A DNA stretch of 64,000 nucleotides from Balanoglossus misakiensis (GCA_040954595.2 CM082576.2:17779028-17843027), one strand, 5' to 3'. Positions 4,057 through 39,516 are shown, counted from the first letter of the stretch. Numbers and translations: made by a program. Notes: generated by a model not told the origin, from the letters alone.

Positions 4057-7000
4057 TTACACATATTTCATGAAATTTACAATAGTTCTATCGTTTTTTA
4101 CATAGTTTATATAATATAGCTCTTCAGTAAGGAATTTTCTCACATTTTGCTGTTTTAGTATCCTTGCTTTGTATACCGCAAAGGTGCTTAACATTATGAT
4201 TAGGTTCAAAGGTTCGAACTTGTGTAGCTCTAGATAGTAACCATAGATTACATGCTTCCAAGATAAGCTGAACTGAGTGTTGTATGATCTATTAAGGGCT
4301 CGAGTAACAGTGGCCCAGAAATGTGTTACATTTTTACAATCAAAAAGAAAATGCTTACAATCTTCAATTACATTACAAACTTCACACAATGGAGAGGCTT
4401 CTCTCTTCCATTTAAATAAATTCACTTTGTGTGGAAGTTTATCATACAATAAAAATAAATTGAATTGAGCAATCTTTTTAATCTGTATTTTTTTCACTTT
4501 GATTGCCCATATCATACTCCAGTTCGGATAAACACCGATTTTGTTTTCCCACACCTTTGTCACATATGATTTTTCTACATACTTATTTACCAGATTCCAA
4601 TAGAAATCTTTACAGCAAAAAGTAAAAACGTCTGTATACTTTCCCTGATGATTTTTTTTCATTATAGCTTTTCTTTGATGAGTAACTATTAACTCATTTC
4701 TTACATTTCTCATACACTGCTTCCATTGATCTGGAATAGCTTTTTTTAAAATCATGTACTGAGTAATCCAGTTTCTTCTTTTCTGTAGCTTGTTTAAAAG
4801 ACAGTGCTGATCAATGAAATTACCATTAACAAATAAGTCGGCTATATGAATAAATCCAGCCTCGATCCACTCAGTGAAAAATAAAGGATGGTTATTTACC
4901 GTTATATTACAATTCCCCCAAATTATTTGTTCTCCCACCTTATTGGGATTTAAATCTATCCGTTGCCCGCTTTGCACAACCTCGTTCCAAATCTTTAAAA
5001 TAGACGAATAAAAACGTGGCAGACCTTTCGTGACATAACATATGCCTGTGTTATTTAGGTTGTACGTAAATATACGCTTGGTCCCCCCAAACTTTTCCAG
5101 GTGGTAATCGATGACTATCTTCCATGTCTGGTTATCGCTGTTTACAAGTCTTGATACCCATCCACACATCAGAGCTTTTACAGTCGAACTTACATCAAGC
5201 ATCTCTATACCTCCATTTTCAATCTTATTAATGATAATACTCTTTCGAATTTTTCCCTTTTTCCCACTCCATAAAAAGTTGTAGAAAAGCTTGTTTAGTC
5301 GCACTATCACATCTTTTGGTGTAACAATCATAGAGGCTAGGTATACAATTTTAAAAAACGCAAGACTCTTCAGAATGGTTAGTTTACCAAAGACGCTCAA
5401 ATATCTTTTCTTCCAACTATCTAATAATTTCTCAATTTTTTCTAATTTTTTGTCCCAATTTAAAATTTTCAACTCTTTCTTGTTGTGGCCAAAGTAAACC
5501 CCCAAAGCCTTAATGGCTTTATTGGACCATGGAATAAGGCCGATATTACCCTTCCTTTTCCAGGACCCTAGCTTCAACCCTTCAGTTTTTTCTCTATTCA
5601 ATTTTAAGCCAGAGTACTTTCCATATTGGTCAATAATATTCACTACTCGGGCCAAAGATTTTTCATTCTCGATGTACACTTGGGTATCATCTGCCAATTG
5701 AGTGATTTTTATGATCTTATTCCCCACTTTAAAACCAATATTATTCTCATTGCGGATAACCTGGGCAAGTAACTCTGCAAATATGATGAAAAGTAGAGCT
5801 GACAATGGACAACCCTGCCGTATACCTCTTTGTAATGCAAATGAAGAGGTTATCCAACCGTTGTTGGTAACTGCACTCTTACATTCTGTGTAGATCCAGG
5901 TGATAAATGAATTACCAAATCCGAACTTTTCCAGCGCTACAAACATAAATTTGTGTTCTACCATATCAAAAGCTTTACAAAAGTCTAAGAATATGATGGC
6001 CCCTCCTTTATTTCTTTTCTCAGCAAAATCAATCAAGTCTTCAATCAGACGGACATTTTGACCACTAAACCTACCTTTGATATATCCCACTTGATCTGTG
6101 TTAATAATTGTGGGAATAACCTTCTTTAGTCTATTTGCAAGTACGCATGACAGAATTTTGTAGTCGTGATTTAACAATGAGATGGGTCTCCAATTCTTCA
6201 AATCGAGCCTTGTGTCTTTTTTGTGTATAAGCGTGATGACACTTTCACGCTGCGTAATAGCAAGCTTCCCTTCGTCAAAACCCTCATTAAAAGAGTCAAT
6301 GACAAGATTCTTCAAGCTGTCCCAGAACATGCGATAACATTCTATGGGAATACCATCCAACCCAGGTGTTTTATTACTTTTCATATGCCAAATAGCTTTT
6401 GTGCATTCCTCTACCGTTATACTACCTTCCATCTTTTCTGCAAGATTACCTGTTAATTTAGAGTTTGTGCTAATGTTATTAATATAATGTCTTATATCAT
6501 TTTCGTTTACCCCTGTTGTCATATACAGATCACTATAAAAATCTCTCTGTGCATTAAGGATATCTTCTGTTTTTGTTAAAATTCTACCATTTACACAACG
6601 TTTTGTAATCTGCTTGTCCCTGTATCTCTTCCTCTTCAACCCCAGGAAGTATCTGCTGTTTCTTTCACCTTCTTCATACCATTTTATTCTTGATCTTATC
6701 TGCACCCCCCGTAACCTGTGTATATAAATTTGGTTAAGCTGGTTCTTTTTGCTTTCGTATTCTTTAATCATGTCATTGTCCCTGTTGGAGGAGTTTAATA
6801 ACTTACTTTCTAATTTCATGATCTCATTTTCTAAAATCTTCAGCCTAGATTTTCTTTTCCTTTCCTTATCTTTTGCATATTTCATGCTAACTTCTTTAAC
6901 TTTTATTTTTAGAATATCCCATAGATTTCTTTTGTGGCCATTACTATTACAATACTTCAATGTGTCAGTAATCACTGCCTTAATTAAGCATTTATACTCT

Positions 7001-7770
7001 TCGTCCTTAGCCAAACTGGTATTTAACTTCCAATAGCCGGGACCCGTTTCAGAATCTGTGAAACCTATTTTTAGCGAAACAGCATTGTGATCTGTTCTAA
7101 CAGTAGGCCTTATGTCAGCGGAATGAACGCTGGCAAGAAGCTGCTTTGAAATCAGCCAAAAATCTATTCTACTTGCTAGACCCAATGTAACCTGTCGCCA
7201 GGTGTATTGTAGCGTATCAGGATGCAGTGTTCTCCATACATCACACAGCGTAAAAGACTTAGTGAGGTTACGAAGTTTTTTAGACCGCACATAATAGCTC
7301 TTAACCCCACGTCTATCAATATTGACGTCGAAAACAGTATTGAAGTCCCCACCAATAAGGATATAACCTTCGGGTGAAGCGTTTTTGTGTACGAAGCTTT
7401 TCAGAGAAGTCAGGAACGCTTCTCTTTCGCTATGGACATTCGGTGCGTACACATTTACAATTGTGAACACTTCATCATCAATCTCGACAACGACGAGCAA
7501 TTTTCTGCCATCATATGAACACTTAGTATGCCTTATTGTACAGTTTAGACGCTTGTCAAACAGAATTGCGACTCCTTTACTGTGGTTGGTACCAAAGGAG
7601 TTGGTAATGTGCCATTTCCATTCAAAACTGATTTGAGTGGAGAGTTTTTCGTCCCAGTATGTCTCTTGCAACAGCACAATGTCTGCTTTTTGTTCTCTTG
7701 TCCATTTGAAAACCTGTTTCCGTTTTTGTGACTCTCTCAGTCCTCTGCAGTTCAGAGACAGAAAATGCAT
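4057..7770 (-). CDS. LINE ORF2: APE endonuclease, reverse transcriptase and C-terminal CCHC zinc finger (1237 aa)
   Basis: SLNCRGL, LLQET, GGDFN, SRIDF, TDHNAV; WRPISLLN, LDFCKAFD, GIRQGCPLS, QLADDT; CEVC...HFLFDC. Confidence 0.97.
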   Translation of the reverse strand: MHFLSLNCRGLRESQKRKQVFKWTREQKADIVLLQETYWDEKLSTQISFEWKWHITNSFGTNHSKGVAILFDKRLNCTIRHTKCSYDGRKLLVVVEIDDEVFTIVNVYAPNVHSEREAFLTSLKSFVHKNASPEGYILIGGDFNTVFDVNIDRRGVKSYYVRSKKLRNLTKSFTLCDVWRTLHPDTLQYTWRQVTLGLASRIDFWLISKQLLASVHSADIRPTVRTDHNAVSLKIGFTDSETGPGYWKLNTSLAKDEEYKCLIKAVITDTLKYCNSNGHKRNLWDILKIKVKEVSMKYAKDKERKRKSRLKILENEIMKLESKLLNSSNRDNDMIKEYESKKNQLNQIYIHRLRGVQIRSRIKWYEEGERNSRYFLGLKRKRYRDKQITKRCVNGRILTKTEDILNAQRDFYSDLYMTTGVNENDIRHYINNISTNSKLTGNLAEKMEGSITVEECTKAIWHMKSNKTPGLDGIPIECYRMFWDSLKNLVIDSFNEGFDEGKLAITQRESVITLIHKKDTRLDLKNWRPISLLNHDYKILSCVLANRLKKVIPTIINTDQVGYIKGRFSGQNVRLIEDLIDFAEKRNKGGAIIFLDFCKAFDMVEHKFMFVALEKFGFGNSFITWIYTECKSAVTNNGWITSSFALQRGIRQGCPLSALLFIIFAELLAQVIRNENNIGFKVGNKIIKITQLADDTQVYIENEKSLARVVNIIDQYGKYSGLKLNREKTEGLKLGSWKRKGNIGLIPWSNKAIKALGVYFGHNKKELKILNWDKKLEKIEKLLDSWKKRYLSVFGKLTILKSLAFFKIVYLASMIVTPKDVIVRLNKLFYNFLWSGKKGKIRKSIIINKIENGGIEMLDVSSTVKALMCGWVSRLVNSDNQTWKIVIDYHLEKFGGTKRIFTYNLNNTGICYVTKGLPRFYSSILKIWNEVVQSGQRIDLNPNKVGEQIIWGNCNITVNNHPLFFTEWIEAGFIHIADLFVNGNFIDQHCLLNKLQKRRNWITQYMILKKAIPDQWKQCMRNVRNELIVTHQRKAIMKKNHQGKYTDVFTFCCKDFYWNLVNKYVEKSYVTKVWENKIGVYPNWSMIWAIKVKKIQIKKIAQFNLFLLYDKLPHKVNLFKWKREASPLCEVCNVIEDCKHFLFDCKNVTHFWATVTRALNRSYNTQFSLSWKHVIYGYYLELHKFEPLNLIIMLSTFAVYKARILKQQNVRKFLTEELYYINYVKNDRTIVNFMKYV

Positions 7771-7848
7771 AAAGTGGTAGATCTAAATCTGAACGCAAGT
7801 AAGAAAACTATAGTTTAAAGAGCTTACAGGAAGAAACAGTCTGCTTTC

Positions 7849-9021
7849 TCATCTTCTTCTTTGCCCTTGGACTTTCTTTCTTTTCTTCGCTGCTTTCTTC
7901 GCTTTGGTCTTCGCTACCATCGCTTTCCTAAACGCGTCTGACGCCGCCGAATCTTCTTCCAAATCTTCCGTCTCTTCGTCCGACAGCAACGTTGAAGACA
8001 TGTCTGTTGAAGTACTGACGTGTTTGCGCTTTGTGTCACTGGGCGTGGCAGTAACCGTTAACGGTACAGATGTCCGGGACTCGGCTACGTAATCGGTGAT
8101 CTTTTGCTGCTTGGCCTGGTGTGGTACCTCGGATGCCTTCGACGGAATACTTTGCCTCGATTTCACACTTTCTGTTGCAACTGTCGCAGCAGCTGGATTC
8201 TCTGTGTGTGCAGCACTGTCGGCCTGTACGTCACTGTCTTGACTGATTGTCACCTCTTTCGTATGTAAATAGCTCCAATTATGCATACTTGTGCAATTGG
8301 CGCGAATGTGTCCACTCTTCTTACAAAGCCTGCATACCACCTGATTGCTGCAATCTGACTTCAGGTGGCCTTGCTGGAGACAGTTGAAGCAAAATGACTT
8401 GCCATAACTATCCTGCATCTGGGTGTTAGCTTCTTCCTTCCTTTCGCTATACAAGAGGTTGCAAATAAAGCCATCTATTTTTATTTGCCAGTCCGGCGGG
8501 GTTGGTTGACTAAGTTTGTTGACAAAGACAAAGCGGTCTCCATTATCAATATTCGTCAATTTCCCGTCGATTCGCCATTTCGCTTTCACTATTGATCTCA
8601 CCTGTATACCAATTTCCTTGAGTTTCTGTCTTATGACTTCATCACTCACAGACAATGGCAAGTTTCTGACTGTGATTCTGTCAGATGGATCTCTTTTTGA
8701 TGAAGTGTAAGGGTTTTCATCGTATAAAGTCATTCTTTTGCCTCTCAGGTTTATTCCTCCCGATAGCAAAATGATACGATCAGCAGTATCGTTAACATAC
8801 AGGCGCCACAAACCTCGTATTCTTTGTATCCCTGTTATTCCTGTCGGGTCAATCGATTCCGCCATAGCTTTGATGATCTCCGGCCCAGATAGCATCGGCA
8901 CATCTTCTCTTGAAATCACATCATAGTGTTTCAAGAAGACCGGTTTGACAACTTCACTTTCCTTCACATTACTTGCCGTTTCTGTGGACTTGCTGGTTAC
9001 GTCATTCATGCATACCGCCAT
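7849..9021 (-). CDS. LINE ORF1, gag-like protein with two CCHC zinc knuckles (390 aa)
   Basis: GIQRIRGLWRLY, RITVRNLPLSV, CFNCLQQGHLKSDC, CRLCKKSGHIRANC and a basic C-terminus; lies directly upstream of ORF2. Confidence 0.93.
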   Translation of the reverse strand: MAVCMNDVTSKSTETASNVKESEVVKPVFLKHYDVISREDVPMLSGPEIIKAMAESIDPTGITGIQRIRGLWRLYVNDTADRIILLSGGINLRGKRMTLYDENPYTSSKRDPSDRITVRNLPLSVSDEVIRQKLKEIGIQVRSIVKAKWRIDGKLTNIDNGDRFVFVNKLSQPTPPDWQIKIDGFICNLLYSERKEEANTQMQDSYGKSFCFNCLQQGHLKSDCSNQVVCRLCKKSGHIRANCTSMHNWSYLHTKEVTISQDSDVQADSAAHTENPAAATVATESVKSRQSIPSKASEVPHQAKQQKITDYVAESRTSVPLTVTATPSDTKRKHVSTSTDMSSTLLSDEETEDLEEDSAASDAFRKAMVAKTKAKKAAKKRKKVQGQRRR

Positions 9022-9254
9022 ATTGGTTCTCCAAGATTGTCAATGCGGCTTCGTTGCAAGTTTTCCACTTTAGATTTCAGGAAACATCAAAGTCGTCTGC
9101 ACGAAAACCTCCACTCTGTGTGAAGACTGCTTGTAGTTGCAGCCTTTGCACGTCACAAAAACGACGATACAAGCTCTGACAAGGATATAAACTCAATAGA
9201 TATCAGATCGAAGCGACTGGGTCTGTGCCTTGGTACAGCCTCGTTTTCGCCTCC

Positions 9255-10355: not shown

Positions 10356-12040
10356 GGCCGAGTTCGATTGTGACCCGAGTAGCGACCCGAGTAGCTGCCG
10401 GTGACGTCATCACATTCTAGTTAGCATGCGCATAAGCGTAACCCGGGAGATTTCAAACGAACGATACAACATGTACAAGGTAGCAACCCATGTAAACAAA
10501 TATGGCGACTGAGTTCGAAGATTTCTTGGTTTTGCGTAATTTTTTTGAGGATTTTGATGAATCTTTAGATTCTGCGGCAGTTTTGCAACTTCGGATAAAT
10601 ACTGCCATCATTGCCTCTCTGAGCTGTTTTTTTTTGCGCCGAAAATACGTTCCGGGAATAAAATGTTTTGCCTAAGTTAATATCAAGGAATTTCACAAAA
10701 CCGTACATACTCCTATCGAGCATAGACCCTAGAGAAAGAAGGACGCGTAACTCCAGGTTTTTCTTGAAACGATGTTCTTTTGCATACATTATTTCCGGAT
10801 AATCCCCAATAATCCAATTTGCAAATAAACTATGTATAAACTTACGAAAAGTCTCGCGTTTTGCGAGAAAAGACGAGAAAACTGCAACGTGGTTGAACTG
10901 CAGCGATCATTTATAGAACACATCTGGACAAGTTAAACACGAATTTGGCACTTCTGAGTCTGACAGCGTCCAAAACAAGCATCTTTTGTCTAACAGTCCC
11001 GGTATTTGACAAGGTTGTGAGCTAACCGTACCTAGGGCTTCCTGTCGTCGTCAACCATGAGAAACCAAGATGGCGGCCATAGCGCACACGTGAAAATCCA
11101 CAAAGTTTGTTTACAAATTGTTTTCGTGAAATCTGTTTCATTGTTCACGCACTGCAAAATAAAATGCCCCTAAACCACAATTTTTGTTTCAATGCTTCAC
11201 GCAAACATAAAATTATTACGAAAAGTGTCAGCATTACCAAGAAGTATGAGTGCCCAGTCGGACATGCAAAGACATGGATGATTTGTTTACAATTTTTAAA
11301 TGAAGCTTGTGGCACTAGAAATGACCGTTCAATCGACAGACGAACACCAAACCATAATAAATAGCACAGAAAACGTAATACTTTTTGAATTTTAGAAAAA
11401 AACGCAGTGGCTGCTGAAATATAGGAGTGCCAGTTTTTATTTACTGTCGCGCATCACAGAGTTGCGTTTATTTTGTTGGTGATATGTTAATGATATTCTA
11501 ATGACATCTCAGCATGCCAAAGTGGAGATTCACGCCTGCCACCGTCCTAGGTGTTAATTATATGCAAAAGAACATCTTCATACTGATAATCCCCAAACCC
11601 TTTGATCTTTGCCGCAGTTGCGCGTCCTTCTTTCCCTAGGGTCTATGTATAGAGTAAAACAAAATCTGATCCAGCGATCGTCGCCTGATTTTGTCGTCGT
11701 CACACGTAAACAATACGACTTTTATTCAAAAATATCCGAAATACGTACACCCTGTACTGTAAAAATTATGAAAATTGCTTTAAAATTAGTGCAATGACAT
11801 CGTTTACCGCGTTTTCCCTGAAAATAGCAAAAAACACCTAATATTTATTTTTACGTACGGTTGCCCTGTCGCCATTTTGTCGAGTTCCAACCCCAGCAAC
11901 CCTGCTCCTGACGCGAACAGGCCCAGGTTAAGTTCAAAGGTCATATGACGTAATTTGCGTCATCAGCGTAGCAACTCGGAGTCGTTCGATTGCAACGCGC
12001 GCGACTCGGGTAGCTCTTCGGGTCGCAATCGAACTCGGCC
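10356..12040 (+). mobile_element. Non-autonomous PIF/Harbinger element A (internal deletion derivative)
   Basis: TIRs GGCCGAGTTCGATTG...CAATCGAACTCGGCC. It retains MATEFEDFLVLRNF at ~10502, similar to MADDFADFLFLHKF at the start of the transposase at 39516. No clean TSD. Confidence 0.8.
10721..11647. mobile_element. MITE with CATAGAC termini (P-element-like)
   Basis: ~30-bp TIR CATAGACCCTAGAGAAAGAAGGACGCG / CGCGTCCTTCTTTCCCTAGGGTCTATG. Flanks are TATCGAG and TATAGAG (7 bp, 1 mismatch). The superfamily call is tentative. Confidence 0.7.
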
Positions 12041-12375
12041 ATGGAAAACCTTGGCTGAGTTCGATTGTGACCCGAGTAGCAACCCGAGTCGCGCGCGTTG
12101 CAATCGAACGACCCCGAGTTGCTACTCTGATGACGCAAATTACGTCATATGTATGGAACGCCGTAACTGTCTTATATGATTACAGGAAATATTGTCTTCC
12201 GCATTTTTAGTACATGCTAGGCATTGCAGTTAAATTATGAGCATTTGTTAATATTGCCAACTATTTTGTCACTTTATTCAAGCCATTTAGTTTACCATCC
12301 TAGCCATTTGTCATACTATTATAGCCAAACATTGTGATTTCTAATCCTCTTCTCCGTTTATACTAGTTATTTACC

Positions 12376-14494
12376 TTATTACATTCATAGACCCGGTTAT
12401 TACCACAATGTGACGTCATACTAAAGTAATAAGAAATCGACAGATTGCATATTACCGTAGTATGATGTCACTGCCAATAATTCTGCCGGAACTACTTTCA
12501 GTTTGTAAACAAATAAAAAAACTATCCTACGATGTTATATTGCATAATACTATAGTGGATGGGCTTTGAAGTTTGGGAAATATGGGGTTACAAATAATAA
12601 AGCACATGTGAAATATCGTTTAATGATGTTTTATTAGTTTGCTCGATGTATTGAAACTGTGGCGGGAAATTTTTGGTGACTGTCGTCTGCGCTTCAAAAA
12701 TTTTGTTCGATCGAAGATGTCAGCGACAGAGCGGTACATAGCTATGTCGTCGAACGACATTGACGATTTTATAACGAGCCAAAGAAAGCAGAACACTGTA
12801 AAATCGACCACAAACGCAGTGAAACAACCTAGGAAATTTATAGAGGAGACAGAAGATGGTTTAGCGACAGATATACATGAAATTCCGCCTGAAATTCTGG
12901 ACGTCTGCCTGTCGAAATTTTTCGTCGGGTCGAGGCAGAGCGACGGGTCTGACTACGAGCCGGACACTCTCACAACATACCAGCGTGGGATCGACAGGTA
13001 TTTAGCGGAGAATGGATATAGATATTCCATTTGCTGGGATAAAAAATTCACTAAATCGCAAGAAGCCCTGCGAGCCAAAAGATGCGAATTAAAGGGCAAG
13101 GGGAAAGGAAATAAATCCCGTGCGGCGGAACCACTGACCGACGATGAAATCAACATCATGCGTGAGAAGGGTATCCTTGGAAATCATAGTCCCGAGTCAC
13201 TTCTGTATACGGTTTGGTGGAACAACACCATATTGTTAGGATTCCGGGCCTCCGATGAGAACAAGAAACTGCTCTGGGGAGACATCCAGCTAAAAGAAAC
13301 GGCAGCGGGTCGGGAATATCTTGAATTTAACGAGCGCGACAACAAAACACGCTCCGGTCAACACGCAAGTTTCGTTCGCCCGTATTGTCCAAAGATGTTT
13401 GCCGTAACCGATAAAGCTATCTGTCCGATCGAGTCATACAAGGCATACCGCTCTCATCGACCACCAGAGCTATGTATGCCCGAATCCCGTTTTTACCTTG
13501 CCATTAATTATAACCCGACAACCAACATGTGGTACAAGCGACAACCCATGGGAAAGAATAAACTAGAAAGCATAGTGCAGACCATGGCGACAAAAGCAGG
13601 CATTCCAGGCCGTAAAACAAACCACAGCGCCAGGAAAACAGCCATCCAAAAGTTGCACGATAGTGGTGTTGCCCCCACACAAATAATGCAGCTTTCAGGG
13701 CACAGAAATGTCCAGTCGATCAACTCGTATGCTGTAAACTCACTCTCCCAACAAGAGCGAATGTCTGACATCCTCGTCAAGGACAAACCGCAAACCGAGC
13801 TGGTACCTGTCACACGGCCCGCCCTTCCAACTGAAGATGTCACTCACACCTCACGCTCTTTTGCCCTACCAAGCTCTGTAAACAGCCATCCCCACCAACT
13901 CACGTCTGTCGCAGCGTCTCCCTTCCAGTCTACATCATCGGACGGAGGTATCGTAGCGGCTGCAGCTGCGGGAATGTTTTCTGGGGCCACCATGACCGGG
14001 TGTACGATCATCGTAGCCATCAATGTTGCTGGGACCGCGAGTCAGTCAGCGCCGCGACCGTGTAAACGTCGAGCCGTAATCTACGATACCAGCGATAGTT
14101 CACAGGATTGAGATGACTGTTTGATTTCGTGACTGTTGTATTTGTTGTGAAACATTGCATTTCAAAACTAGTTGACAATTTATTAGTGTTCTGTTCTGTT
14201 CTGTTCGACTTGCATGAATGTTCCGTTGTCTCACACAAAATTTATGAATGAGCTGAAACAGCTGAGCTGAGCCTCTTCACTATTTTTTCTCTATATTTGA
14301 GCAGCTTGAAATAATTAAAACCCTTCCGAAACCATTAAAATAAATTTTATTGCAAAATATTAAGACTGTCCCGGGTCTATGAATATAATAAATACATAAT
14401 CTCCCAGTATTTCTCACCCGTATTACGTCAGCGAGGAGTCACTCGTCCCTTGCTGACGTAATACTCGTTCGAAATACTGGGAGATTATATATAA
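12376..14494 (+). mobile_element. Crypton-type tyrosine-recombinase DNA transposon, apparently complete
   Basis: Boundaries are fixed by the uninterrupted right TIR (TTTACC|ATATTACG). No TSD; ends are TTA...TAA; one long ORF. Confidence 0.9.
12717..14111 (+). CDS. Crypton tyrosine recombinase (DUF3504 / KCTD1-ZMYM-QRICH1-related), 464 aa from first ATG
   Basis: DGSDYEPDTL, GFRASDE (R), KTRSG (K), CPIESYKAY, QPMGKNKL, TNHSAR (HxxR), SGHRN (H) and SINSY (Y). The catalytic set is intact. Confidence 0.92.
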   Translation: MSATERYIAMSSNDIDDFITSQRKQNTVKSTTNAVKQPRKFIEETEDGLATDIHEIPPEILDVCLSKFFVGSRQSDGSDYEPDTLTTYQRGIDRYLAENGYRYSICWDKKFTKSQEALRAKRCELKGKGKGNKSRAAEPLTDDEINIMREKGILGNHSPESLLYTVWWNNTILLGFRASDENKKLLWGDIQLKETAAGREYLEFNERDNKTRSGQHASFVRPYCPKMFAVTDKAICPIESYKAYRSHRPPELCMPESRFYLAINYNPTTNMWYKRQPMGKNKLESIVQTMATKAGIPGRKTNHSARKTAIQKLHDSGVAPTQIMQLSGHRNVQSINSYAVNSLSQQERMSDILVKDKPQTELVPVTRPALPTEDVTHTSRSFALPSSVNSHPHQLTSVAASPFQSTSSDGGIVAAAAAGMFSGATMTGCTIIVAINVAGTASQSAPRPCKRRAVIYDTSDSSQD

Positions 14495-15149
14495 ATATTA
14501 CGTTAGGCATTTGTCATATTACGGGAGACATTTTGTGTATTGTATTATGCATTTGGTATGCAATTATTGGCATTTTACATAAATCGTAGTCTTTTATTAC
14601 TTTATGTTAGTTATTTGTAGTTATTTGGAATATCATGCTAGGCATTTCAGTTAAATTATGCGCATTTATTAATATTGTCAACTATTTTGTCATTTTATTT
14701 AAGCCATTTAATTTACCATCCTAGCCATTTGTCCAACCATTTTAGCCAAACATTATAATTTTTAATCCTTTTCTCAGTTTATACCAGTTATTTACCATAT
14801 CACGTTAGGCATTTGTCATATTATGTTATTCATTTTGTGTATTGTATTACGCATTTGGTATGCAATTAATGGCATTTTTTCATAATGCGTAGTCTTTTAT
14901 TACTTTATGTTAGTTATTTGGTATATCCTGTTTGGCATTGCAGTTGAATTATGTGCATTTAGCATACCATCCAAGCTATTTGCTATAATGTTAAACTCTT
15001 GATAGGTTGTTAGGTTAATACTGGTAATTTAATAAATTATTTAAGACATTTGTTACATTATTTTGGGCATATATTATAATCTTTCACTCTTTTCTTAGTT
15101 TTTGCAAGTTATCTTGTTAACTTGGTTAGGCATTTGTCTTATTATTTAA

Positions 15150-16124: not shown

Positions 16125-16441
16125 TTAAGCAATAAAACACCCCCAGCCATGGTATACCACGAGATTTTGACCAGTTCACGACATATACGCACGAGCGATA
16201 GCGAGTGCGTATATGGAGTTGAACTGGTCAAAATCGAGTGGTATACCATGGCTGGGGGTGTTTTATTGCTATTATATTATACCAGTATATTGAAACTTTG
16301 CATAAAACATTTTAAAAAGGCATTTTCTTTGACTATGATATATGACTGTGGTATATGGCTAATATATCACGGTCACGTGTCGTGTCTCGACCAATCAAAT
16401 AGTGTGATTTACACCATCAATATACTGGTATAATATAATAA
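16125..16441 (-). mobile_element. Non-autonomous Crypton-like element (terminal hairpin plus subterminal inverted repeat)
   Basis: Hairpin ~16128-16272, followed at once by TTATACCAGTATATTG, whose complement CAATATACTGGTATAA forms the far end. Confidence 0.6.
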
Positions 16442-18856: not shown

Positions 18857-19938
18857 TTAAGGTACCCCAAAAATCGGAAATGCAATCAATGTCGAGTCAA
18901 TCATCATAACCATTTTCGCGAAACTGAATAGTAGTTTATTTTCATATCATCACTGGCAAGATAATTAGTTGAAAGTTTCTTTAACAAAACTTGAGTTTAT
19001 ATGGAAATATTGAACTATAAGTACATACAAATATCCGATTTCATAGCAAATACTTATTCCCCAATATTTTCGGAAGTCAACAGGTCTACAGTCTGTAGTT
19101 CCTGGTTCGGAAAATAACAAATAAACACCATTTTTGCATGTGCAGATGTCAAAATTTATTCGAGGCAAAGTGGTAACGCGGGGCAACCGCTTGCGCGTCA
19201 GGCAACTCATCGCCCGAAAATCCGACATGACGGATTTTGAGGCGACGTCGCCAGACGCGTTCCAGCGACGCGACTATATCATACACACGAGGCAACTCAC
19301 CGAGCAACTCGGGTTGCGCGTCGAGTTGCCTACCGAGTTGCCTCGTGTAACTCGGCCTTTACAATGTTTTGCTTCCGCCGTTTTGTCATAGCCATTCACT
19401 TCGTTGTGGTAGGCATTGTTGGGCCTGTTAGTGAGGGCGCTGCTCCAGTGGTAGTCTTCTGGCGTATCGTCATAGGCAATTTGTACAACACAATGTACAT
19501 CATGCAAGGCATTTTCGTTATTGTAGGCATTTGTGTGGGCGCTGTGTGATTAGCGTCGCGTCCACAGGACGTTCTGTACGTAACGGACGCGGACGCGCAT
19601 TTCATTTTCAGTATCACACAGTCTTGGAGCAAGACTAGAGGTAAAAGTATATCCCAACAGTTACTGAGGGTTTCGCCGGGGGGGGGGGGGGGGGGGGTTC
19701 GCCAGGAATATTGTATTTGAAAAACTGTTGACAACTTAGCTGCCACTGTTAGTGTGTTAGTTCTTTGGTGTGACCTGAACTAAGTTTTTGAAGGTCTCGT
19801 TGCATACTTTTCATCCATACACGGAATCACTACTTCCAGCAGCGGATACTTTGTATGTTTACAATGAATCGTGGGAAATAAAAGCTGGGGTCACCGGGTC
19901 ATTCGTAAGACATTGCATTCTGACCATTCATGTTTCAA

Positions 19939-21304
19939 ATGGCGTCGAACATGGCAAGTATTCTGGCATCTTTTAACCTTGCGTATCTCACTGGTGTATT
20001 TGAGAGAGAGGATATCACCCCAGACCTTGTGTGCCTTTTGTCTGTGAGCGACTTTGAAAAGTTAGGGCTACGTAGTCGAGCACACATGATGTCTCTGCGA
20101 ACTGCATGTTGCACGTTTGGAAGAAAAGCACCAATCAACGTTCGAGAGGGTTGTGGTGCCCCGCAATTTATCATTCCCAAACCAGTGCTGGAGAACCTTT
20201 TGGAAGAGGGTTTTTTGATAAAAGAAATAGCTTCGATGTTAGCCATTTCTGAAAGTACAATTTATCGCAGGATGAGACGATATGGATTAAGTAAGATGAA
20301 CTTCACAGAAATTTCAGATTATGACTTAGATGCAGTTCTTAAGGAGTTATCAAGAGAGTTTCCCAGCTGTGGAGAAAACATGATGAAGCTGATTTTACTT
20401 GATAGGAGTGGCATTAAAGTACAGCGAATGAGGCTAGAGACAGCGTCCATCGAGTTGACCAGATTGGAGTTGAACTAAGACGTCAAGGTAGATTGCAGAG
20501 AAGGGTGTACTATGTGAAAGGCCCCAATCACCTCTGGCATATTGACACAAATCATAAACTAATACGGTGACACTTTATTATAATTGGTGGGATCGATGGG
20601 TTAGCCGCCTTCCTGTCATGCTGCAGTGCACAGATAACAACAAGTCAGCCACACTTTTAGACTGTTTTAAAGGTTCTGTAGAAGTATATGGTCTGCCAAG
20701 CAGAGTTAGATCCGACATGGGTTTAGAAAATGTGGACATTGCTGATTTCATGATATTGAAAAGAGGACCTAATCGAGGCAGTATGATTACTGGTAAAAGT
20801 GTACATAATCAAAGGATAGAACGATTATGGCGTGATGTGTATGAAGGTGTCCTCAGTTTGTACTACCAGCTTTTTTACTTCATGGAAGACCGTGGTATTT
20901 TAGACCCGCTGAATGACCTTCATCTTGCAGTTCTTCACTTTGTATTCCTAAGCAAGATAAATGACAAGTTGCAAACATGGACGAATGCATGGTCACGACA
21001 TCGACTTAGAACAGCAAGATCGACACCTCTTCGTTTGTGGGTTGCTGGACAGTTTCAAAATCCTGTGGGTGTTGAACTGACAAGCAGTGACATGGACGGT
21101 TATGGAGTAGAGGGTATTGTGGATGATGCTGACCAAGTGAATGATACCAGGCCAATGCTGGATCAACTATCATGGCAATTTACTGAACCTTGTTTGCGCG
21201 AACTTACTGCAAGGATATCTCAGACATGGACTTCTGATAACTATGGCATTGACATTTATATGCTAGCATCGGAAATAGTTAATAATCATATGCAAGGGAT
21301 ATAA
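19939..21304 (+). pseudogene. IS3EU transposase with N-terminal SAM-like domain, HTH and integrase-core DDE; disrupted
   Basis: ILASFNLAYLTGVFEREDITPDLVCLLSVSDFEKLGL (SAM-like), IKEIASMLAISESTIYRRM (HTH), [23 protein letters not shown] and HNQRIERLW. Frameshifts near 20440 and 20600; in-frame TGA near 20568. Confidence 0.9.
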
Positions 21305-26630: not shown

Positions 26631-27533
26631 TTACATATAATCCCATGATATCTTTCTTTGTTTGACGTCATCGTATACGAGTGGTTTTCACGAGCAGTGC
26701 AACTTCGAGCCACAGGCGAGAAGTTGTACGCTTCCGCGAAAACCTCGAGTATACGATGACGTTAAACAAAGAAAGATATCATGGGATTATATATTTATCA
26801 CATGAACAGTCTTCTTATTTTTCGTTAGAAGAGGCAGGACTAAAAAAATTCAGTATATTGCAACAATTTTGGAGCGGTGTCGTAATTTACTGAGCGGGAT
26901 TATTTCCCCCAGGAGATATATGTTGGGAGATTTTATGAATGATCAGCGATAGTTCATCATTTGCATATACGCAAATGATGAACTATCGCTGATCATTCAT
27001 AAAATCTCCCAACAAGTCGTCCCGTTGAGTTCCGTTCGCTCGAAGTTCGGCCTTACACAAATGTAATCGATTCTCTAACAATTTTACTGCAACCTGTTGC
27101 CACGTCTTATACATTTCGTTGACCGGTGGAATATAGAGGTTCAGTCGTCACGCTGAACTGGCTCGAAACAATTGCCCACACTGATTCGATTCGGAACGTA
27201 CAGGACTTGCGCCTAGCCTAGGCTGTGTACGCCTGACCCAAAACTTTGACAGCCACGATCGTCTATGATCGTTGCATCGACTGTCTTCTTTCCAAATTCC
27301 ACCTTTCTGTTTTGAGCTTACAAAGCGATATTGTCATGGAACCGTCATTTTTTTAATTTCATTTCTGTAATGTAAATGCCGCTGCACGTACTGTTTCTGT
27401 TTGACAACAAAGCTACGGCGAATCGGTGGAAATAGTCCCGGTTGATGACGTAACACAGGGGTGATCTGGATTTTTTATCTGTCCTGGTCTACGTCACACA
27501 GGTGGTGATCAGGGGCCGGTTCATGTGATAAAA
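26631..27533 (-). mobile_element. Non-autonomous Crypton-like element in HECT intron 3
   Basis: Terminal hairpin ~26635-26792, followed by TTATCACATGAAC, whose complement GTTCATGTGATAA ends the element. Confidence 0.6.
26921..27014. repeat. Perfect hairpin, 44-bp arms and 6-nt loop
   Basis: TGTTGGGAGATTTTATGAATGATCAGCGATAGTTCATCATTTGC, then ATATAC, then the exact reverse complement. Confidence 0.9.
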
Positions 27534-28913: not shown

Positions 28914-29324
28914 TTCATATTGAACACCTATTGCCTGGCCACGAGGGCCATAGCGGCTGTTTATTACACCCGAGGGGCTGTGATATTTCCCGAGGCCGCA
29001 GGCCGAGGGAAATAGCATATGATTCTGGTAACTCACAGTCACGAGGGGGTAAAAACGGCTGCTATGGCCCGAATATAGGCCAGGCTATAGGTGTTTTATA
29101 ATAAACCTCATGCTAACAGCTGGGAAAATCTTGCAATTTTCTCTTGAGGTTGGCAGACGACACCTTCAGCGGTGGCCATTGTGTCAGACGACGCGACGTT
29201 GGTCATGTGACCGGTTTATATTTTTTCTGCTATTTCCCTAGCGGTTCATAGTCGATTCTATTTTCCTATCACGTGACAGATTCTGGCGAATCACGGCACA
29301 GTATTAGCACGAGGTATATTATAA
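28914..29324 (-). mobile_element. Non-autonomous Crypton-like element, copy 1 (HECT intron 2)
   Basis: Near-identical to 36929-37389 apart from two internal deletions; ends in TTAGCACGAGGTATATTATAA. Confidence 0.65.
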
Positions 29325-32270: not shown

Positions 32271-34069
32271 ACAGCGCCCGCACAAATGCCTACAATAATG
32301 AAAATGCCTTGCATGATGTACAAATTGCCTATGACGATACGCCAGAAGACTACCACTGGAGCAGCGCCCTCACTAATGGGCCAAACATTGTCTACCACAA
32401 CGAAGTGAATGGCTATGACAAAACGGCGAAAGCATAAACATTGTAAAAATGCGTAAGATAATCTGACATTTGTCTAGATAGATCTACAAAACAACTAGCA
32501 CAAACTGGCAAAGGAATTAAAATTAATCATAGATGCCTTAAATAATAAGACAAATGCCTAACCAAGTTAACAAGATAACTTGCAAAAACTAAGAAAAGAG
32601 TGAAAGATTATAATATATGCCCAAAATAATGTAACAAATGTCTTAAATAATTTACTAAATTACCAGTGTCAACCTAACAAGAGTTTAACATTATGGCAAA
32701 TAGCTAGGATGGTACGCTAAATGCACATAATTCAACTGCAATGCCAAACAGGATATACCAAATAACTAACATAAAGTAATAAAAGACTACGCATTATGAA
32801 AAAATGCCAATAATTGCATACCAAATGCGTAATACAATACACAAAATGAATAACGTAATATGACAAATGCCTAACGTAATATGGTAAATAACTGGTATAA
32901 ACTAAGAAAAGGATTAAAAATAATAATGTTTGGCTAAAATGGTTAGACAAATGGCTAGGATGGTAAATTAAATGGCTTAAATAAAGTGACAAAATAGTTG
33001 ACAATATTACTATGAAATTCGAAATACCAGCAACAAACGGTAAACTAGCAACATCGTATTTCTTTGATTCCGCCGACACATTATCTCTAAAATTGTAACA
33101 ACGTCACAATTTAGTAGACAAAGAGGCGCCCCCCCCACCCCATCCCAATTGCGCAGTTGAAGTACGTGCGTGTTGAGAGAGACTAGTCTGGTTCCCTGCC
33201 CCAATCCCACCGATGGCTGCGCTACGCTAAAGGGAAAGGGGTCAGGTACGGCCCGATTGCATACCCAGAAACCTGGGAAGACCACGTGATCATAAACAAG
33301 ATGGATGCCTCCAATATCCGTACGCCAGTCAAGATTCATCCAGGCAGTTTATTTTGTTTCGTTTGTTGTAAAGTTGGAAATCGAATGATAAACATTCATG
33401 GAGGTGAAGGAGAGAACGGGAAATGAGTATCTTACAACAACTTAATGTTCGTATGTATTGACCAATGAGAGCCATGTTTACAATAGGCCGTGCCTGACCC
33501 TTTCCCTTTAGCGTAGCGCAGCCAGCAGTGTACTTCAACTGCGCAATTGGGATGGGGGGCGCCTCTTTGTCTACTAAATTGTGACGTTGTTACAATTTTA
33601 GAGATAACGTCTCGGCGGAATCAAAGAAATACGATGTTGCTAGTTTACCGTTTGTTGCTGGTATTTCGAATTTCATAGTAATAAATGCGCATAATTTAAC
33701 TGCAATGCCTAGCATGATATTCCAAATAACTAACATAAAGTAATAAAAGACTACGATTTATGTAAAATGCCAATAATTGCATACCAAATGCGTAATACAA
33801 TACACAAAATGTCTCCCGTAATATGACAAATGCCTAACGTAATATGGTAAATAACTAGTATAAACGGAGAAGAGGATTAGAAATCACAATGTTTGGCTAT
33901 AATAGTATGACAAATGGCTAGGATGGTAAACTAAATGGCTTGAATAAAGTGACAAAATAGTTGGCAATATTAACAAATGCACATAATTTAACTGCAATGC
34001 CTAGCATGTACTAAAAATGCTGAAGACAATATTTCCTGTAATCATATAAGACAGTTACGGCGTTCCATA
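32271..34069 (-). repeat. Right TIR of IS3EU no. 2 (~1.13 kb net)
   Basis: Reverse complement of the reconstructed left TIR, with one MITE insertion. Confidence 0.92.
33010..33678. mobile_element. TA-flanked MITE (Tc1/mariner-like) with ~155-bp TIRs
   Basis: TA-CTATGAAATTCG...CGAATTTCATAG-TA; the empty site is visible in the left TIR. Confidence 0.85.
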
Positions 34070-35569
34070 CATATGACCTTTCAACCTAGCCCGGGCCTCT
34101 CTAGCGCCAGGATGAGGGTTAGTCGAGTTGGAACTCGCCAAAATGGCTGCCAGGCAACCGTGAGTAGCATCATTTTTTTCAGGATTTTCTTATTATTTTC
34201 ATGAAAAAAAGTGGTAAACCGGAGAAGTCTATCGTATCGACATAAGTTTTCATAATTACCAGTGTTTCAGGCGTTTTCCGCGTAAATTTGAGTTAAAATT
34301 AAATGATTATGCTATTTGTTTATATAGCAGACGACAAAATATTGTAAACAATAGAAACGCCGGTAATGTTAGCCTACTGTAAACCGGGAAATTTTCACGA
34401 CTGATATTTTTCGCGATATCAAAAGAGGTAACTGTTACGCGAGTATTAATTTTCACGTTCTCTTATTTCATTGCATCGTTATCTCCAAAAAATACGCGTC
34501 TTTTTATTTTCAGTTATTTTGTTTTTTTGTGGGGGAAGCTCTTGCGTAGTTCGCGAACATTTATCGTTCGCGAAAATTTTACGTTTAGTAAATTATATTT
34601 TTTGAATTTTGTTTTGCAAAGTTAAAACATACTAGTTAGTATTTTTTTCCAATACTAATTTTAATGTTTTACGCCAGTTTTCAGCTGGAAATCGTGGACG
34701 CTGCAAACAATAGTAAGCGAACTGTAATTGAAGTGGAGAAAGAAATTGCAGATTTGTTGAAATCGCCAAATCTTGGTGAGTATTGCCTTGTAGACTTGTC
34801 TCTATGCATAATTGTATTGCGCGTTTTTGCCCTGTAATAATAATATGCAGCAAGTGTTAGTCGGTCGATAGCCGGGATTGAGATGTCAAGCATTGAACTA
34901 AGTTTTGTTTATGTTTACCATTTTCGTCAACAAATAACACTATTCATTGAAGAACAATATTTATAGGATAGAATGGTAAAATGGAGAGAAAGTAACTTGC
35001 CGACCAAGTCCTGTATTTGTTTACATTGAGTCAGCTGGTAGTAGCGACCCTGGCCCAGTAGCAACAGGAAGCTTTGTAATTTGCACTGATACAATGTAAC
35101 CTACCATTGATGTCACAGTGACCCTGGAGCTCCAGGGTGTGTATATGAAGTGCAGCCCCCCCCCTCTCTATCTATAACTATAGTGTTGTAAGGTACCATG
35201 ATGATTATTATGTGAAGCATATTGATGATGTATTTTTTTCTAATATTGTTGTTGATTTAATTTTTATAAATGTTCGCCAACAATTTCTGATTCCAAAGTC
35301 AAATTAATTGTTTAAAAATAATACAGTCAAGGTTATACAAGAACATGTATGTACATGTCTTTACAAAAATAATTGATAAATGTATATGGCCACTGTGATC
35401 TGCAAGCATACATTTGAAACCATAGAAATTCCATACATTTTAGAAAAAAAACCTTGAAATTCTTAAAGCAGTTTAGATATTTGAAGGGTACTATTACAAG
35501 ATGCTGGGGTTGTCCTTTCATAACATCCTTGAAATTGATTATAACAGCATTAATCATTGTATGTTTCAG

Positions 35570-36418
35570 ATGCTAAAATCAAACAGGCAGTTTTGAACCA
35601 GGCCATAGCTGCACACAATGGAGAACAAAAAAGTCAACAAGATCACAACAATGAAAAAAATACCAACAATAGTACCAGTGATGAAACAAGAATAACACAG
35701 CAACATCAACCAAACCAAAAAGATCGACCAGAACCTAAGGTTGTACAGAACACTGAACATTTGAGTACAAGTAATATTGATAAAGTCCATATTTGGACAG
35801 AGAGGGAAGAAAGTTTGTTAGTAGTATTGCGTACAGATATGGAAGATGTCTTCAAACAAAATGTAAGACATGAGAAGTTGTGACAAAAAAATTGTTACAG
35901 AAATGAAAAAATCTGATGTGCTTGTGTATGTTGTACAGGCAAGAGATAAATGGAAAAATCTAAAAAAATCATATATGGAAGTTGTCGACAATAAACGGAA
36001 AACTGGTGCCAAAAGAAAAACTTGTCGACACTATGCTGAATTTAACAATCTATATGGAACAAAAGAATCCACACATCCTACATGCACAATTGATTCTCTC
36101 GACATCAACGACAAGACTGACAAGACTAAGGACATCGACAAAACGACAGCGACAGACATGACAATAGACATGAGTACTACATCAACCACAGAAAGACAAG
36201 AAAGTACAGATGTCATTCATGTGACACCAAGTGCCTCGAGAAAAAGAAAGAAAACATCAGACAGGGTTTCTCCCCAAGACAAATTATTATCTACCATATC
36301 AAAGATGGAAAAGAAAAATGATGATTTGTTTAAAATAATGGAAAAACAACACACAGAAAAAATGAAAAGAATGGACAGAATGTTGGATCTGTACGAACGC
36401 TCTTTAAAAAAGAACTAA
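35570..36418 (+). pseudogene. Harbinger Myb/SANT-like (trihelix) DNA-binding protein, main exon; disrupted
   Basis: WTEREESLLV...HEKL*...KIVTEMKK...QARDKWKNLKKSY plus a C-terminal coiled coil. A TGA and a frameshift fall near 35881-35892. Confidence 0.85.
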
Positions 36419-36928
36419 ATATAATTAATACATTTGTACATGTATTAACCCGGTATGTGTTTCCTAGCTTTTGCCTGTTAGTATACAATAACTTGTGTAT
36501 AGTTGAATGTTTAGAAACATGTAATTTTAAGGAAATGAAATTTTCCATGTGATAACAAAAATGAATTTCACAGATTTTAAATGAAAATTATATACATGAT
36601 TAATAATCTGCAAAAAAAGAAGAAATCAAAATTGTTTATAAATACCTAGTGTACTTTTTAAAAACATTTAAGCTTTTACCAGTTTACAGTTTTACAGTTT
36701 TTACAGTTTAGTGTGTACTAGTTGATTTCAACATATTTTAAGGTGATAAACAGAATTATTTCATGTTAACTTACATCACTGAGATTGACAAATGTAAATA
36801 GATAAATATATTACTAAAATCGATCTTAAACCAAAGTTTGGGTACCACATCTGTTATTGATCTTTAAATATTAATATTGAATTGATATTTTATTGTATTA
36901 TATTAATAATATATACATGCAATGATAT

Positions 36929-37389
36929 TTATAATGAACACCTATTGCCTGGCCATGAGGGCCATAGCGGCCGTTTATTACACCCGAGGGGCTGTGAGTT
37001 ACCAGAATCATATGCTATTTCCCGAGGCCGCAGGCCGAGGGAAATAGCATATGATTCTGGTAACTCACAGTCACGAGGGGGTAAAAACGGCTGCTATGGC
37101 CCGAACATAGGCCAGGCTATAGGTGTTTTATAATAAACCTCATGCTAACAGCTGGGAAAATCTTGCAATTTTCTCTTGAGGTTGGCAGACGACATCTTCC
37201 GCGGTGGCCATTGTGTCAGACGACGCGACGCTGATTGACGTGACCGAGTCTGCGCACTCACGCTGGTCACGTGACCGGTTTATATTTTTTCTGCTATTGC
37301 CCTGTAGGGTTCATAGTCGATTCTATTTTCCTATCACGTGACGGATTCTGGCGAATCACGGCACAGTATTAGCATGAGGTATATTATAA
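36929..37389 (-). mobile_element. Non-autonomous Crypton-like element, copy 2
   Basis: TTATAA at both ends and at the internal junction (~37128-37133); ~200-bp terminal hairpin; subterminal inverted repeat CCTCATGCTAA / TTAGCATGAGG. Confidence 0.7.
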
Positions 37390-37912
37390 TTGTATTTATT
37401 GAATGTACAATATTTATATTATTTATAAACATGAGTTCATTAATGAATTTCACAATTGTTACAAACTATCTTGACAATAAATGGATATTATGTACTAATG
37501 TGAAAAGTGTGCTGTATTTTCCTCCAAGACAGTCTTCGGACATTTTGTTCAAGTTCTGATACTTAAAACAAACAAAAAAGCACATAACATCCATATGAAT
37601 TATTTGAATAATATTTTAATATAAATAACAAATGAGTACAATGAAACACTTTAATATAAATAACAAATGAGTACAATGAAACACTGTCATCAAAAAATTT
37701 CACTAATGCTTTTTCTATGGACAAAATCTTTCAATACTGTTCATTTCAAAATTACACAGAGTGGCCTTTCAATTTTATTTCATCACTGTTAGTGTTATAA
37801 ATTTATTTATTTATTTTGACTGAGCTTTGTGCAAATATTAATGAAAATGAAAAAAGTAATGTAATCCTATGGGAAGGGGAAATTTCCATTTGTGCATAAC
37901 ACTTGTACATCC

Positions 37913-39516
37913 TTAAGGCAACATATTCATCAACATTTGCCGCCTGGCAATACCACCTACTGCGTTCTCATGAATATTTTCATACTGGTTTGGATTAATT
38001 AACAATTCTGGATCCAAGTCAATATATGCTTCAATGTCATCCTCATGAATTATGCACAAATTATGCAGGATACAAGCTGCATATATCATGTGACCTACGT
38101 CTTCTGCATTGTGCATTGGCAGTTCTCTTAGTCTACGCATACGTCCCTTTAAATGTCCAATGGCTCTTTCTACATTCTGTCTACAAGAAGACAGATGTCT
38201 GTTAAAACGTCGTTGTTGAGCGTTCAAATGACCATTATCTCGGAATGGTGTTATAAGCCAGTCTCTGAGAGGATAAGCAGAGTCACCAATTACAAAACCT
38301 TCAGGCATTATGATTCCATGGTGCTCAGCTTTAGCGTACAGTGTCGAGTTTCGTAAGACACGTGCATCATGGGCACATCCTGGCCATCCAGTATATGCAT
38401 TTGTAATCAGCAGTCTATCATCAATTACAATCTGGAAATAAACATAAATTAAGAAGTGTCTTTATTTTACTATCTAAAATTGTATATTGTATTATTGAAA
38501 AAATCTACAAAAAAGGAATTTACTGTGCAACTATATAAAGTATACATCAAAACAGGTCCAATATCATTCTAGATAAACATTTTAATAACCATGAGTGACT
38601 GAATGTCCAGTATTATGCTTCTCACATGGCAATGTTGTTGTTGTTGAAAATGAATTAATCATCAACATTTAGTTATGAGATTAAAAAAACTTGAAAATAA
38701 CTTTTAAAATCACTGTTGATAATAATGTGTTTACCTGAAGCTGCATTGATGGATATCCCTTCCTGTTGACAAAGTCTTGATCTCCACCAATACACGAACC
38801 AAGTCTTACATGTGTGCCATCCATAAGTCCAACAACTCCCTGGAAACCATAGTTTAACTGAAACTCCTGGGAGATTTGATGTTGCCTTTCATGGTCTGGC
38901 CAACTGATAACCTTTATATAAAAATATCAATCAGAAGCATTAATATCTGTAACTATTGTCGATAAGTTTTGTTACAGACGAATGTAGACAAATTTAAACA
39001 TACATGTAATGTTCACTGAACACACAGATACAGAAAAGGAATAAAAAGGTGATTTCTTACATTTCTGAGTCTTGCGATAATAACCCTGGTAACTCTCCTT
39101 ATTACACCATGCACAGTAGACTTTGAGACATTGAAAATCTGACTGACTTCTCGCATTGACTCTTGATTTACAATGTACTAGATAAACATAAGCAGCTGTT
39201 TCTCATGAGTTACATCGGACCTTCCTCCAGCATGTTCTGTTACCAGTGCACCGTCGATTTGGTTAAGCATAAAATCAAATATGCCACGACATATGCGGAA
39301 ATTTACGCAGAAGTCTTGCAGAGTGTACATGGGCACAACTTCTTCAGCAAAATTCCTAATCCGAGGAACAAATTTTCGTCTAAAAAACAGAGCTGTCAAT
39401 ATCGGAAAGATGGTCGAGTTTGTTGTAAGTTGAGTAGCAACTTCTAGAGTTGGATCGTGATCGGCGAAGTCTAAAAATTTATGCAAAAACAGAAAATCGG
39501 CGAAATCGTCCGCCAT
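37913..39516 (-). pseudogene. Harbinger (HARBI1-like) DDE transposase, three exons, premature stop
   Basis: Exons 39516-39061, 38911-38735 and 38431-37913. Motifs GLMDGTH, NRKGYPS, GWPGCAHDARV, GDSAYPL and VERAIGHLKGR. In-frame TAG at ~39178. Confidence 0.92.

Follow-up and report, generated by a model that had tools for sequence, protein, structure and literature searches.

A CryptonA transposon of Balanoglossus misakiensis, located at positions 12376–14494 (+) of the 64 000-nucleotide stretch analysed here (the window), carries an internal region complementary to both of its ends. The layout can be written A...A'-N5-B...B'-N7, where N5 and N7 are spacers of five and seven nucleotides. This end structure of CryptonA transposons is real, conserved and apparently undescribed. 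Judging by sequence, the CryptonA recombinase probably acts on a folded hairpin site, in the manner of integron attC and CTX phage sites, exchanging a single strand and leaving the product to be resolved by replication. No description of the layout in Cryptons was found in the literature searched; Repbase and Dfam entries, Goodwin 2003, subscription papers and supplements lay outside that search, and single hairpin-bearing families may be noted there. Nor did the portions of the literature covered demonstrate how Cryptons move.

The exact ends of the element are given by an empty site. The host repeat that carries the Crypton has several empty paralogues inside the window, and the closest of them (33740–34077, minus strand) is 98–99% identical to both flanks. 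At its junction (33846|33845, minus strand), the flank match runs up to 12375 and resumes from 14495. The same two positions are joined, with zero ambiguous bases, in the contigs of all three runs of one sample. The element is therefore 2119 bp long and has no target-site duplication, as the first-pass annotation had stated. The hexamer TATTAC is present twice, one base in from the left end of the element and one base past its right end, in the flank; the right copy is target sequence because the empty site assigns it there. A target-site duplication or a shared 6-bp crossover sequence was rejected, because of a difference in the first base and because the hexamer falls to the target in the empty site. 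From this comparison, the apparent 6-bp direct repeat of the Crypton is read as a half-site resemblance between A and the target, with no shared crossover sequence. The two flanks contain a target-derived 7-nt spacer on the left (12369–12375, +; 1/7 identity to N7) and a target-derived half-site on the right (14495–14501, +; 6/7 like the start of A).

The element has one gene, a single-exon tyrosine recombinase ORF of 464 amino acids (12717–14111, +), open from the ATG at 12717 and matching the DUF3504 (E 1.2e-20), Phage_integrase and QRICH1 domains. The catalytic residues R177, K210, H303, R306, H329 and Y338 (codons at 13245, 13344, 13623, 13632, 13701 and 13728, +) are all present, and each is conserved in 27–30 of 30 aligned proteins. 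Among named proteins, the closest relatives are KIAA1958-like and come from hemichordates (68% and 55%), and the closest solved relative by sequence is QRICH1. The predicted fold (mean pLDDT 89) is nearest, among solved folds, to Cre (Z 17.3, rmsd 3.5, 278 aligned); the values are Z 13.8, rmsd 5.2 and 249 aligned for integron integrase, and Z 5.6 and rmsd 7.7 for the protelomerase TelA. An ORF and domain scan found no reverse transcriptase or second long ORF inside the element, and gag, RT/RNase H genes and long inverted terminal repeats of the DIRS-1 type are likewise absent from it. No relative was found in the viral contigs searched, and Rfam gave chance hairpin matches only, far below gathering scores. 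A subterminal 5' hairpin with 29-nt arms (12410–12471, folding z −5.3) contains the octamer TGACGTCA and is possibly the promoter. A 5' hairpin also occupies a similar position in related families, where it bears paired CACATGTG motifs as well as CCAAT boxes.

On its protein, the element is assigned to CryptonA, despite having split inverted repeats. It shares with this group a single DUF3504 tyrosine recombinase gene, the lack of a reverse transcriptase and of a TIR-TSD structure, and gene-less derivatives that far outnumber the coding copies. It differs by its defined A...A'-N5-B...B'-N7 ends and its target consensus. Kojima and Jurka in 2011 found no terminal repeats in animal Cryptons and cited the circle model (PMC3212892), and the 2026 paper on Glomhopper found no repeats at its ends (PMC13465315). 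Kojima in 2018 linked Eulor5/6 to Cryptons by terminal similarity, with no mention of the structure in the text covered (PMC5753468). The trait 'without terminal repeats' of animal Cryptons fails here, split inverted repeats being present in the element and its relatives; it is a description and not a defining trait of CryptonA.

The left end, A (12376–12396, +), begins with the common half-site motif TTATTA and pairs at 20 of 21 positions with A' (14371–14391, +), exactly as first noticed; the best match in 200 mononucleotide shuffles of the element was 15/21. A' is followed by N5 (14392–14396, +), the left hairpin arm B (14397–14436, +), a loop (14437–14447), the right arm B' (14448–14487, +) and the terminal N7 (14488–14494, +), the first five bases of which pair 4/5 with N5 while the last two have no partner. 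The pairing announced between 14392–14413 and the right end exists (21/22 with 14471–14492), but it is part of a longer hairpin with 45-nt arms (14392–14492, folding z −8.1) and not a 22-nt pair alone. In the same way, A'B is close to the reverse complement of the circle junction B'A, as had been proposed, but the last 2 nt of the element lie beyond B', and the predicted junction therefore has two bases more than A'B. The description of the copy as an intact Crypton holds for the open ORF and the complete R-K-HxxR-H-Y set, but its hairpin apex is about 69 bases shorter than in the main family contigs.

A long terminal palindrome beside a gene of the tyrosine recombinase family might recall a substrate for a telomere resolvase or for rolling-hairpin replication, giving a linear hairpin-ended intermediate. 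We hold this to be exceedingly improbable: the modelled protein matches TelA poorly compared with Cre (see above), the crossover maps to the base of the hairpin rather than to its apex, and the apex is variable in length. Rolling-hairpin priming in particular was rejected, since a 3' end with two unpaired bases could not act as a primer.

The layout A...A'B...B' proved to extend beyond the window copy. Copies of the Crypton were drawn from the window, from the contigs of one sample and from metagenome loci, and a general end rule was derived from 42 curated records. Elements start with TTATTA or a close variant; A' has TAA as its 3' terminus in 30/30 records, after which five bases follow; B opens with a TTAT-like motif, B' closes with an ATAA-like motif, and seven bases finish the element. 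The motifs at A', B, B' and target positions +2 to +4 are part of the detection score, which makes their counts partly circular, and the records are partly dependent; the ends were fixed independently of this score by the empty site, by a pair of paralogous gene-less elements (below) and by multi-copy alignments. Seven nucleotides at the end lie opposite five internal ones in 28/28 records, a register that was seen first in the multi-copy alignments and then built into detection. N5 pairs with the first five bases of N7, imperfectly in 25/28 records, and two N7 bases are left over. The 5-versus-7 offset recurs in 13 groups. Counts on spacers, on pairing and on target position −8 omit the duplicates L080, L009 and L067 and the nested element of L058; L005, a fold-back contig, was excluded. 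The explanation that A...A' is a TIR element next to which an independent hairpin has inserted was rejected, because the same junction recurs across families and hosts.

An adjacent inverted-repeat scan and folding of the window revealed four gene-less elements with the Crypton layout, all on the minus strand: H16 (16125–16438, A/A' 22/22), H26 (26631–27531, A/A' 13/13), H29 (28921–29324) and H37 (36935–37389, A/A' 20/21). H29 and H37 are paralogues with different flanks, so that both of their ends are fixed, and they end two bases beyond the paired part, like the Crypton. The hairpin base of H26 resembles that of the Crypton; the stems of the four elements are mostly unrelated to its stem. 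A perfect hairpin with 44-bp arms (26921–27014) is nested within H26. The Crypton family is multi-copy. In the contigs, summed depth is about 5000 and about 32 000 for the last 30 bases and 300–700 at A'B, an excess which points to many gene-less relatives sharing the Crypton end.

Related loci were searched in metagenome contigs with an alignment of 13 proteins, and the best 80 of 123 confirmed loci (about 29–56% protein identity, with some duplicates among them) were examined. Both A and the A'B module are present on one contig in 14 of these 80; for two of the 14, the contig stops short of hairpin closure, for one, another insertion truncates the end, and for two, A/A' are decayed. The A'-N5-B module occurs without a detected A in 18 further loci, and 18 have a single end only. 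Nothing was seen in 30, of which 27 have less than 400 nt upstream or less than 800 nt downstream of the match. The other three, L029, L056 and L074, lack a convincing layout in spite of ample flanks and are genuine misses, and L031 has the module with no A within 1175 nt. An unguided scan found the layout in 3/80 loci and the window with strict thresholds, and gave 11 forward and 8 mirror matches, many of them noise, with looser ones; the final location of the layout relied on multi-copy alignments and on motif- or family-guided search. Three copies, L036, L061 and one host contig, keep the right end without A'B. The host contig joins 12675 to 14472 through 17 filler bases, skipping the gene and A'B, at approximately single-copy depth. 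Each of the three copies is apparently single, and they are likely to be later deletions; alternatively, loss of A'B may be tolerated. Some relatives are nested or adjoined. A gene-less relative in L018 (4943–5270) lies head to head with an autonomous copy, directly at its A end, and gene-less elements with 5/7 ends interrupt the A' region of a different Crypton family in L057 (3005–3121), L058 (2513–2631) and L026.

Compensatory changes accompany the pairing, both within one family and across families. In six copies of one group, they affect 16 of 62 hairpin pairs, compared with 7.3 in shuffles (0/500 reach 16) and 2–6 in slid controls; relatedness of the copies inflates such counts, and conversion within the hairpin could give the same changes. 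A matches its own A' over 13–22 nt in 14/16 records, the two exceptions being decayed copies, and its match to the A' of other families is limited to a few bases. The own A' is the best match of A in 7/9 families and the own B' the best match of B in 10/13, the remaining B arms tying with, or falling slightly below, another group (a sister group for two of them). Stems B:B' comprise 30–77 pairs. The two arms of one site, A and B, have only 4–9 of 14 bases in common. A' directly adjoins the hairpin, every other offset having scored worse in 13/16 records. A and A' also change together across 1.8–3.2 kb in L037, L050 and L077, which local conversion explains less easily.

These data bear on a simpler scheme with an ordinary double-stranded circle, in which B'-N7-A would be the crossover site and A'-N5-B a non-cleavable accessory binding site, the stems being kept alike by gene conversion or template switching. 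The junction and the target both resemble standard sites with a 7-nt spacer, the enzyme is Cre-like according to its model, and the three copies without A'B agree with such a scheme. A circular intermediate is the published proposal for Cryptons (PMC3212892), and single exchange on such a circle exists in the phage VGJ (PMC4246890). Recognition by a protein, however, predicts a sequence common to arms and families, and only about 6 nt are common; the long A:A' and B:B' matches are instead made by each element with its own sequence. The joint change of A and A' in the three loci just named, at distances of up to 3.2 kb, and the recurrence of the 5-versus-7 offset in 13 groups also speak against it, and we consider the double-stranded scheme improbable.

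The mechanism that we favour instead would use a folded site. The element would leave as a circle, in which A'-N5-B...B'-N7-A would become one local imperfect hairpin of 145–240 nt (here about 145). Recombination would take place at the base of this hairpin, where 7 nt face 5 nt and two bases stay unpaired at the crossover; the hairpin could form on a single-stranded circle or be extruded from a supercoiled double-stranded one. The crossover seen in the genome lies between the spacer and A; if cleavage follows the usual rule of tyrosine recombinases, the cut must then fall on the complement of the A...B' strand: the enzyme on the A arm would cut this strand just after its half-site. A single exchange with a double-stranded target would then produce an atypical Holliday junction, resolved by replication. 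One exchange followed by replication makes no duplication, and the donor copy may remain. The initial release of the circle is the least supported step of the mechanism. No circle junction, single-stranded form or strand-change joint was present in the contigs of one sample, contigs being prone to drop rare forms.

The target sites have been compared with this scheme. If the target is a site with a 7-nt spacer, A is expected at position −8; this base, at a position absent from every search score, is found in 24/31 left flanks (background 0.30), the target of the window copy itself having T. In the right flanks, TAT occupies +2 to +4 in 14/30 cases (background 0.033), a count that is partly circular because the motif is in the score, and in other copies in the host the right flank continues with AT, ATATT or ATATTAC. 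These flanks describe the target as a degenerate recombinase site whose spacer is 7 nt long; insertion takes place at the edge of that spacer and without homology. The 7-mer at the right end equals the family consensus (6–7/7) in 18/22 records of multi-copy families, whereas the 7-mer left of A resembles it in only 1/19 records. Were there a second exchange, at the opposite edge, some insertions would have the element spacer next to A, which is not seen. Without spacer homology, the product of one exchange must be resolved by replication, as for attC × attI and CTX × dif. The spacer and target geometry, as it appears in the alignments, thus fits the exchange of a single strand. One-strand exchange alone is no proof of a folded substrate: the phage VGJ achieves it on a double-stranded attP (PMC4246890).

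In silico, each of the two circular strands folds so that A:A' and B:B' form completely, and the whole element does likewise on either strand. The preference for the predicted strand is weak: G.T pairs favour it by 26 to 9 in 28 hairpins (19 to 9 without the common positions, p 0.09), and its hairpin is the more stable in 21/28 records and 10/13 families (p 0.09). For the window copy, the hairpin of the predicted strand is slightly less stable (−32.8 versus −33.1). The first-pass annotation had suggested a folded single-stranded intermediate that splints its own ends together. Covariation and geometry support the folding, but a splint over 2 kb is unnecessary, because joining the ends turns A'B...B'A into a local hairpin, about 145 nt long, which a double-stranded circle could also extrude. 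A long-range splint, in which the donor strand would fold through A:A' across 2 kb and through B:B' and so bring the ends together for excision, is compatible with the folded circle site. It would supply the excision substrate that this mechanism lacks, and the whole-element folds agree with it; the local alternative, pairing of A' with the flank in the inserted state, is weak (mean 3.4/6 versus 2.0) and absent from the predicted fold of the inserted window copy. It requires, however, 0.2–3.2 kb of single strand closed by only 13–22 bp, and the local hairpin in the circle explains all the sequence evidence equally. We therefore regard the splint as somewhat unlikely.

The complementarity of an internal region to both extremities, together with a tyrosine recombinase, is also known in DIRS-1, where this internal complementary region (ICR) is essential after first-strand synthesis (PMC7192593). 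The corresponding article of Malicki in 2020 does not name integrons, CTX or Cryptons in the text available (PMC7192593). One could thus imagine that the Crypton is copied from RNA by a reverse transcriptase acting in trans, A'B serving as a DIRS-type template that rebuilds the ends, and the intronless ORF would suit this route. Such a template would, however, copy the internal site into the junction, and the end spacer differs from the internal one in length in 28/28 records and in sequence in 25/28. Long terminal repeats are absent, the protein is a DUF3504 recombinase and not that of DIRS, and the hairpin lies on either side of the gene according to the family, which argues against a role in RNA: most families have it 3' of the gene, and one (nine 5' ends and ten 3' ends aligned) has it 5'. 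An RNA route is accordingly very unlikely. The comparison with DIRS, made in the earlier annotation alongside integron attC and CTX attP, fits less well than these two, since the end spacer of the Crypton is no copy of the internal one. The Crypton further differs from DIRS-1 in lacking gag, RT and long inverted repeats and in having an internal site that is not an exact copy of the junction, and the published DIRS-1 model integrates a double-stranded circle (PMC7192593).

Two inverted sites can also serve for inversion. Flp inverts a segment of the yeast 2-micron plasmid, and the two Crypton sites might similarly invert the gene-bearing segment in a circle, with transposition via the double-stranded junction. 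L070 (46–2066) has its A–A' gene segment inverted with respect to the hairpin, relative to its sister L037 (89% identical), and one family is fixed in the mirror orientation. The inverted form, however, accounts for one of the seven copies in this group whose hairpin end can be read; L070 has gained three bases at one repeat and lost them at the other, and is a short contig. Spacers of 5 and 7 nt are incompatible with productive double-stranded inversion, and a hairpin of 45–75 bp is unnecessary for it. We find inversion highly improbable as the function of these sites.

The closest parallels to the folded circle site are bacterial. An integron cassette and the Crypton both begin with half of an outer box and end with its complement, a spacer and a hairpin (PMC5027507). 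The attC site has an unpaired central spacer and undergoes one-strand exchange completed by replication; as in the Crypton, its structure is conserved while its sequence varies, and the crossover lies, or would lie, at the spacer edge (PMC5027507). A G.T skew, weak in the Crypton, has the same direction in both, with 1.24 versus 0.39 per site in attC (PMC5027507) and the values given above in the Crypton. The element is not an integron: its recombinase (DUF3504, not of the IntI family) is encoded inside the mobile unit, there is no attI platform or array, the targets are dispersed and degenerate and the host is eukaryotic. Conserved extrahelical bases were not identified in the B arm. The CTX attP(+) site, a substrate of XerC/XerD, likewise consists of two inverted sites that pair on one strand and undergo a single exchange completed by replication (PMC4246890, PMC3442271). 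The central regions of attP1 and attP2 are unequal, with 12 and 5–7 bp compared with 7 and 5 in the Crypton (PMC4246890). CTX relies on enzymes of its host, integrates at a single fixed site, replicates by a rolling circle of its own and shows no excision (PMC4246890), whereas the Crypton encodes its enzyme itself and has to leave its site again. A bacterial tyrosine-recombinase element with four core genes resembles the Crypton in its strand-biased recombination and in the spacer found at a fixed end after integration; it differs in being target-selective, and the source, as far as available, describes no internal mirror of the junction.

A broader reading, which we offer as possible though not quite probable, is that CryptonA elements are self-mobilizing eukaryotic counterparts of integron cassettes: a one-gene copy-out class with a structure-defined hairpin site, which would need no homology to insert a single strand in degenerate, AT-rich targets and would let replication finish the process. 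On this reading, the DIRS ICR would belong to the same type of folded site, with vertebrate Crypton relics as its fossils. If this is true, folded-strand recombination in eukaryotes would be a new mode of transposition, as it has so far been described for bacteria and their phages, and could provide a one-protein tool for homology-free integration. For Cryptons, the ends are now exactly known, and a target consensus, a prediction of the strand and small defined substrates are available. The 5/7 rule lets gene-less Cryptons be recognized, as it does for the four in the 64-kb window, and suggests a second reading of the need for the DIRS ICR after reverse transcription.

Several other features were observed in the window. 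An element with 32-nt terminal inverted repeats (10721–11647) has nine bases in common with A but probably represents an unrelated TIR element. A palindrome of 210 bp with 103-nt arms (11942–12151) lies immediately to the left of the host repeat, and pieces of it recur at 10356 and 39621. The region 4057–9039 (minus strand), with an open endonuclease–reverse transcriptase ORF of 1241 amino acids and an upstream zinc-knuckle ORF of 396 amino acids, has the appearance of an L1/Tx1-like LINE. Remnants that we take to resemble a Harbinger-type pair (Myb-like and DDE ORFs) and integrase-core ORFs are located at 35867–38461, 1794–2671 and 19924–21304. Two inverted blocks of a 41-bp satellite, approximately 700 bp apart, occupy 55457–58369.
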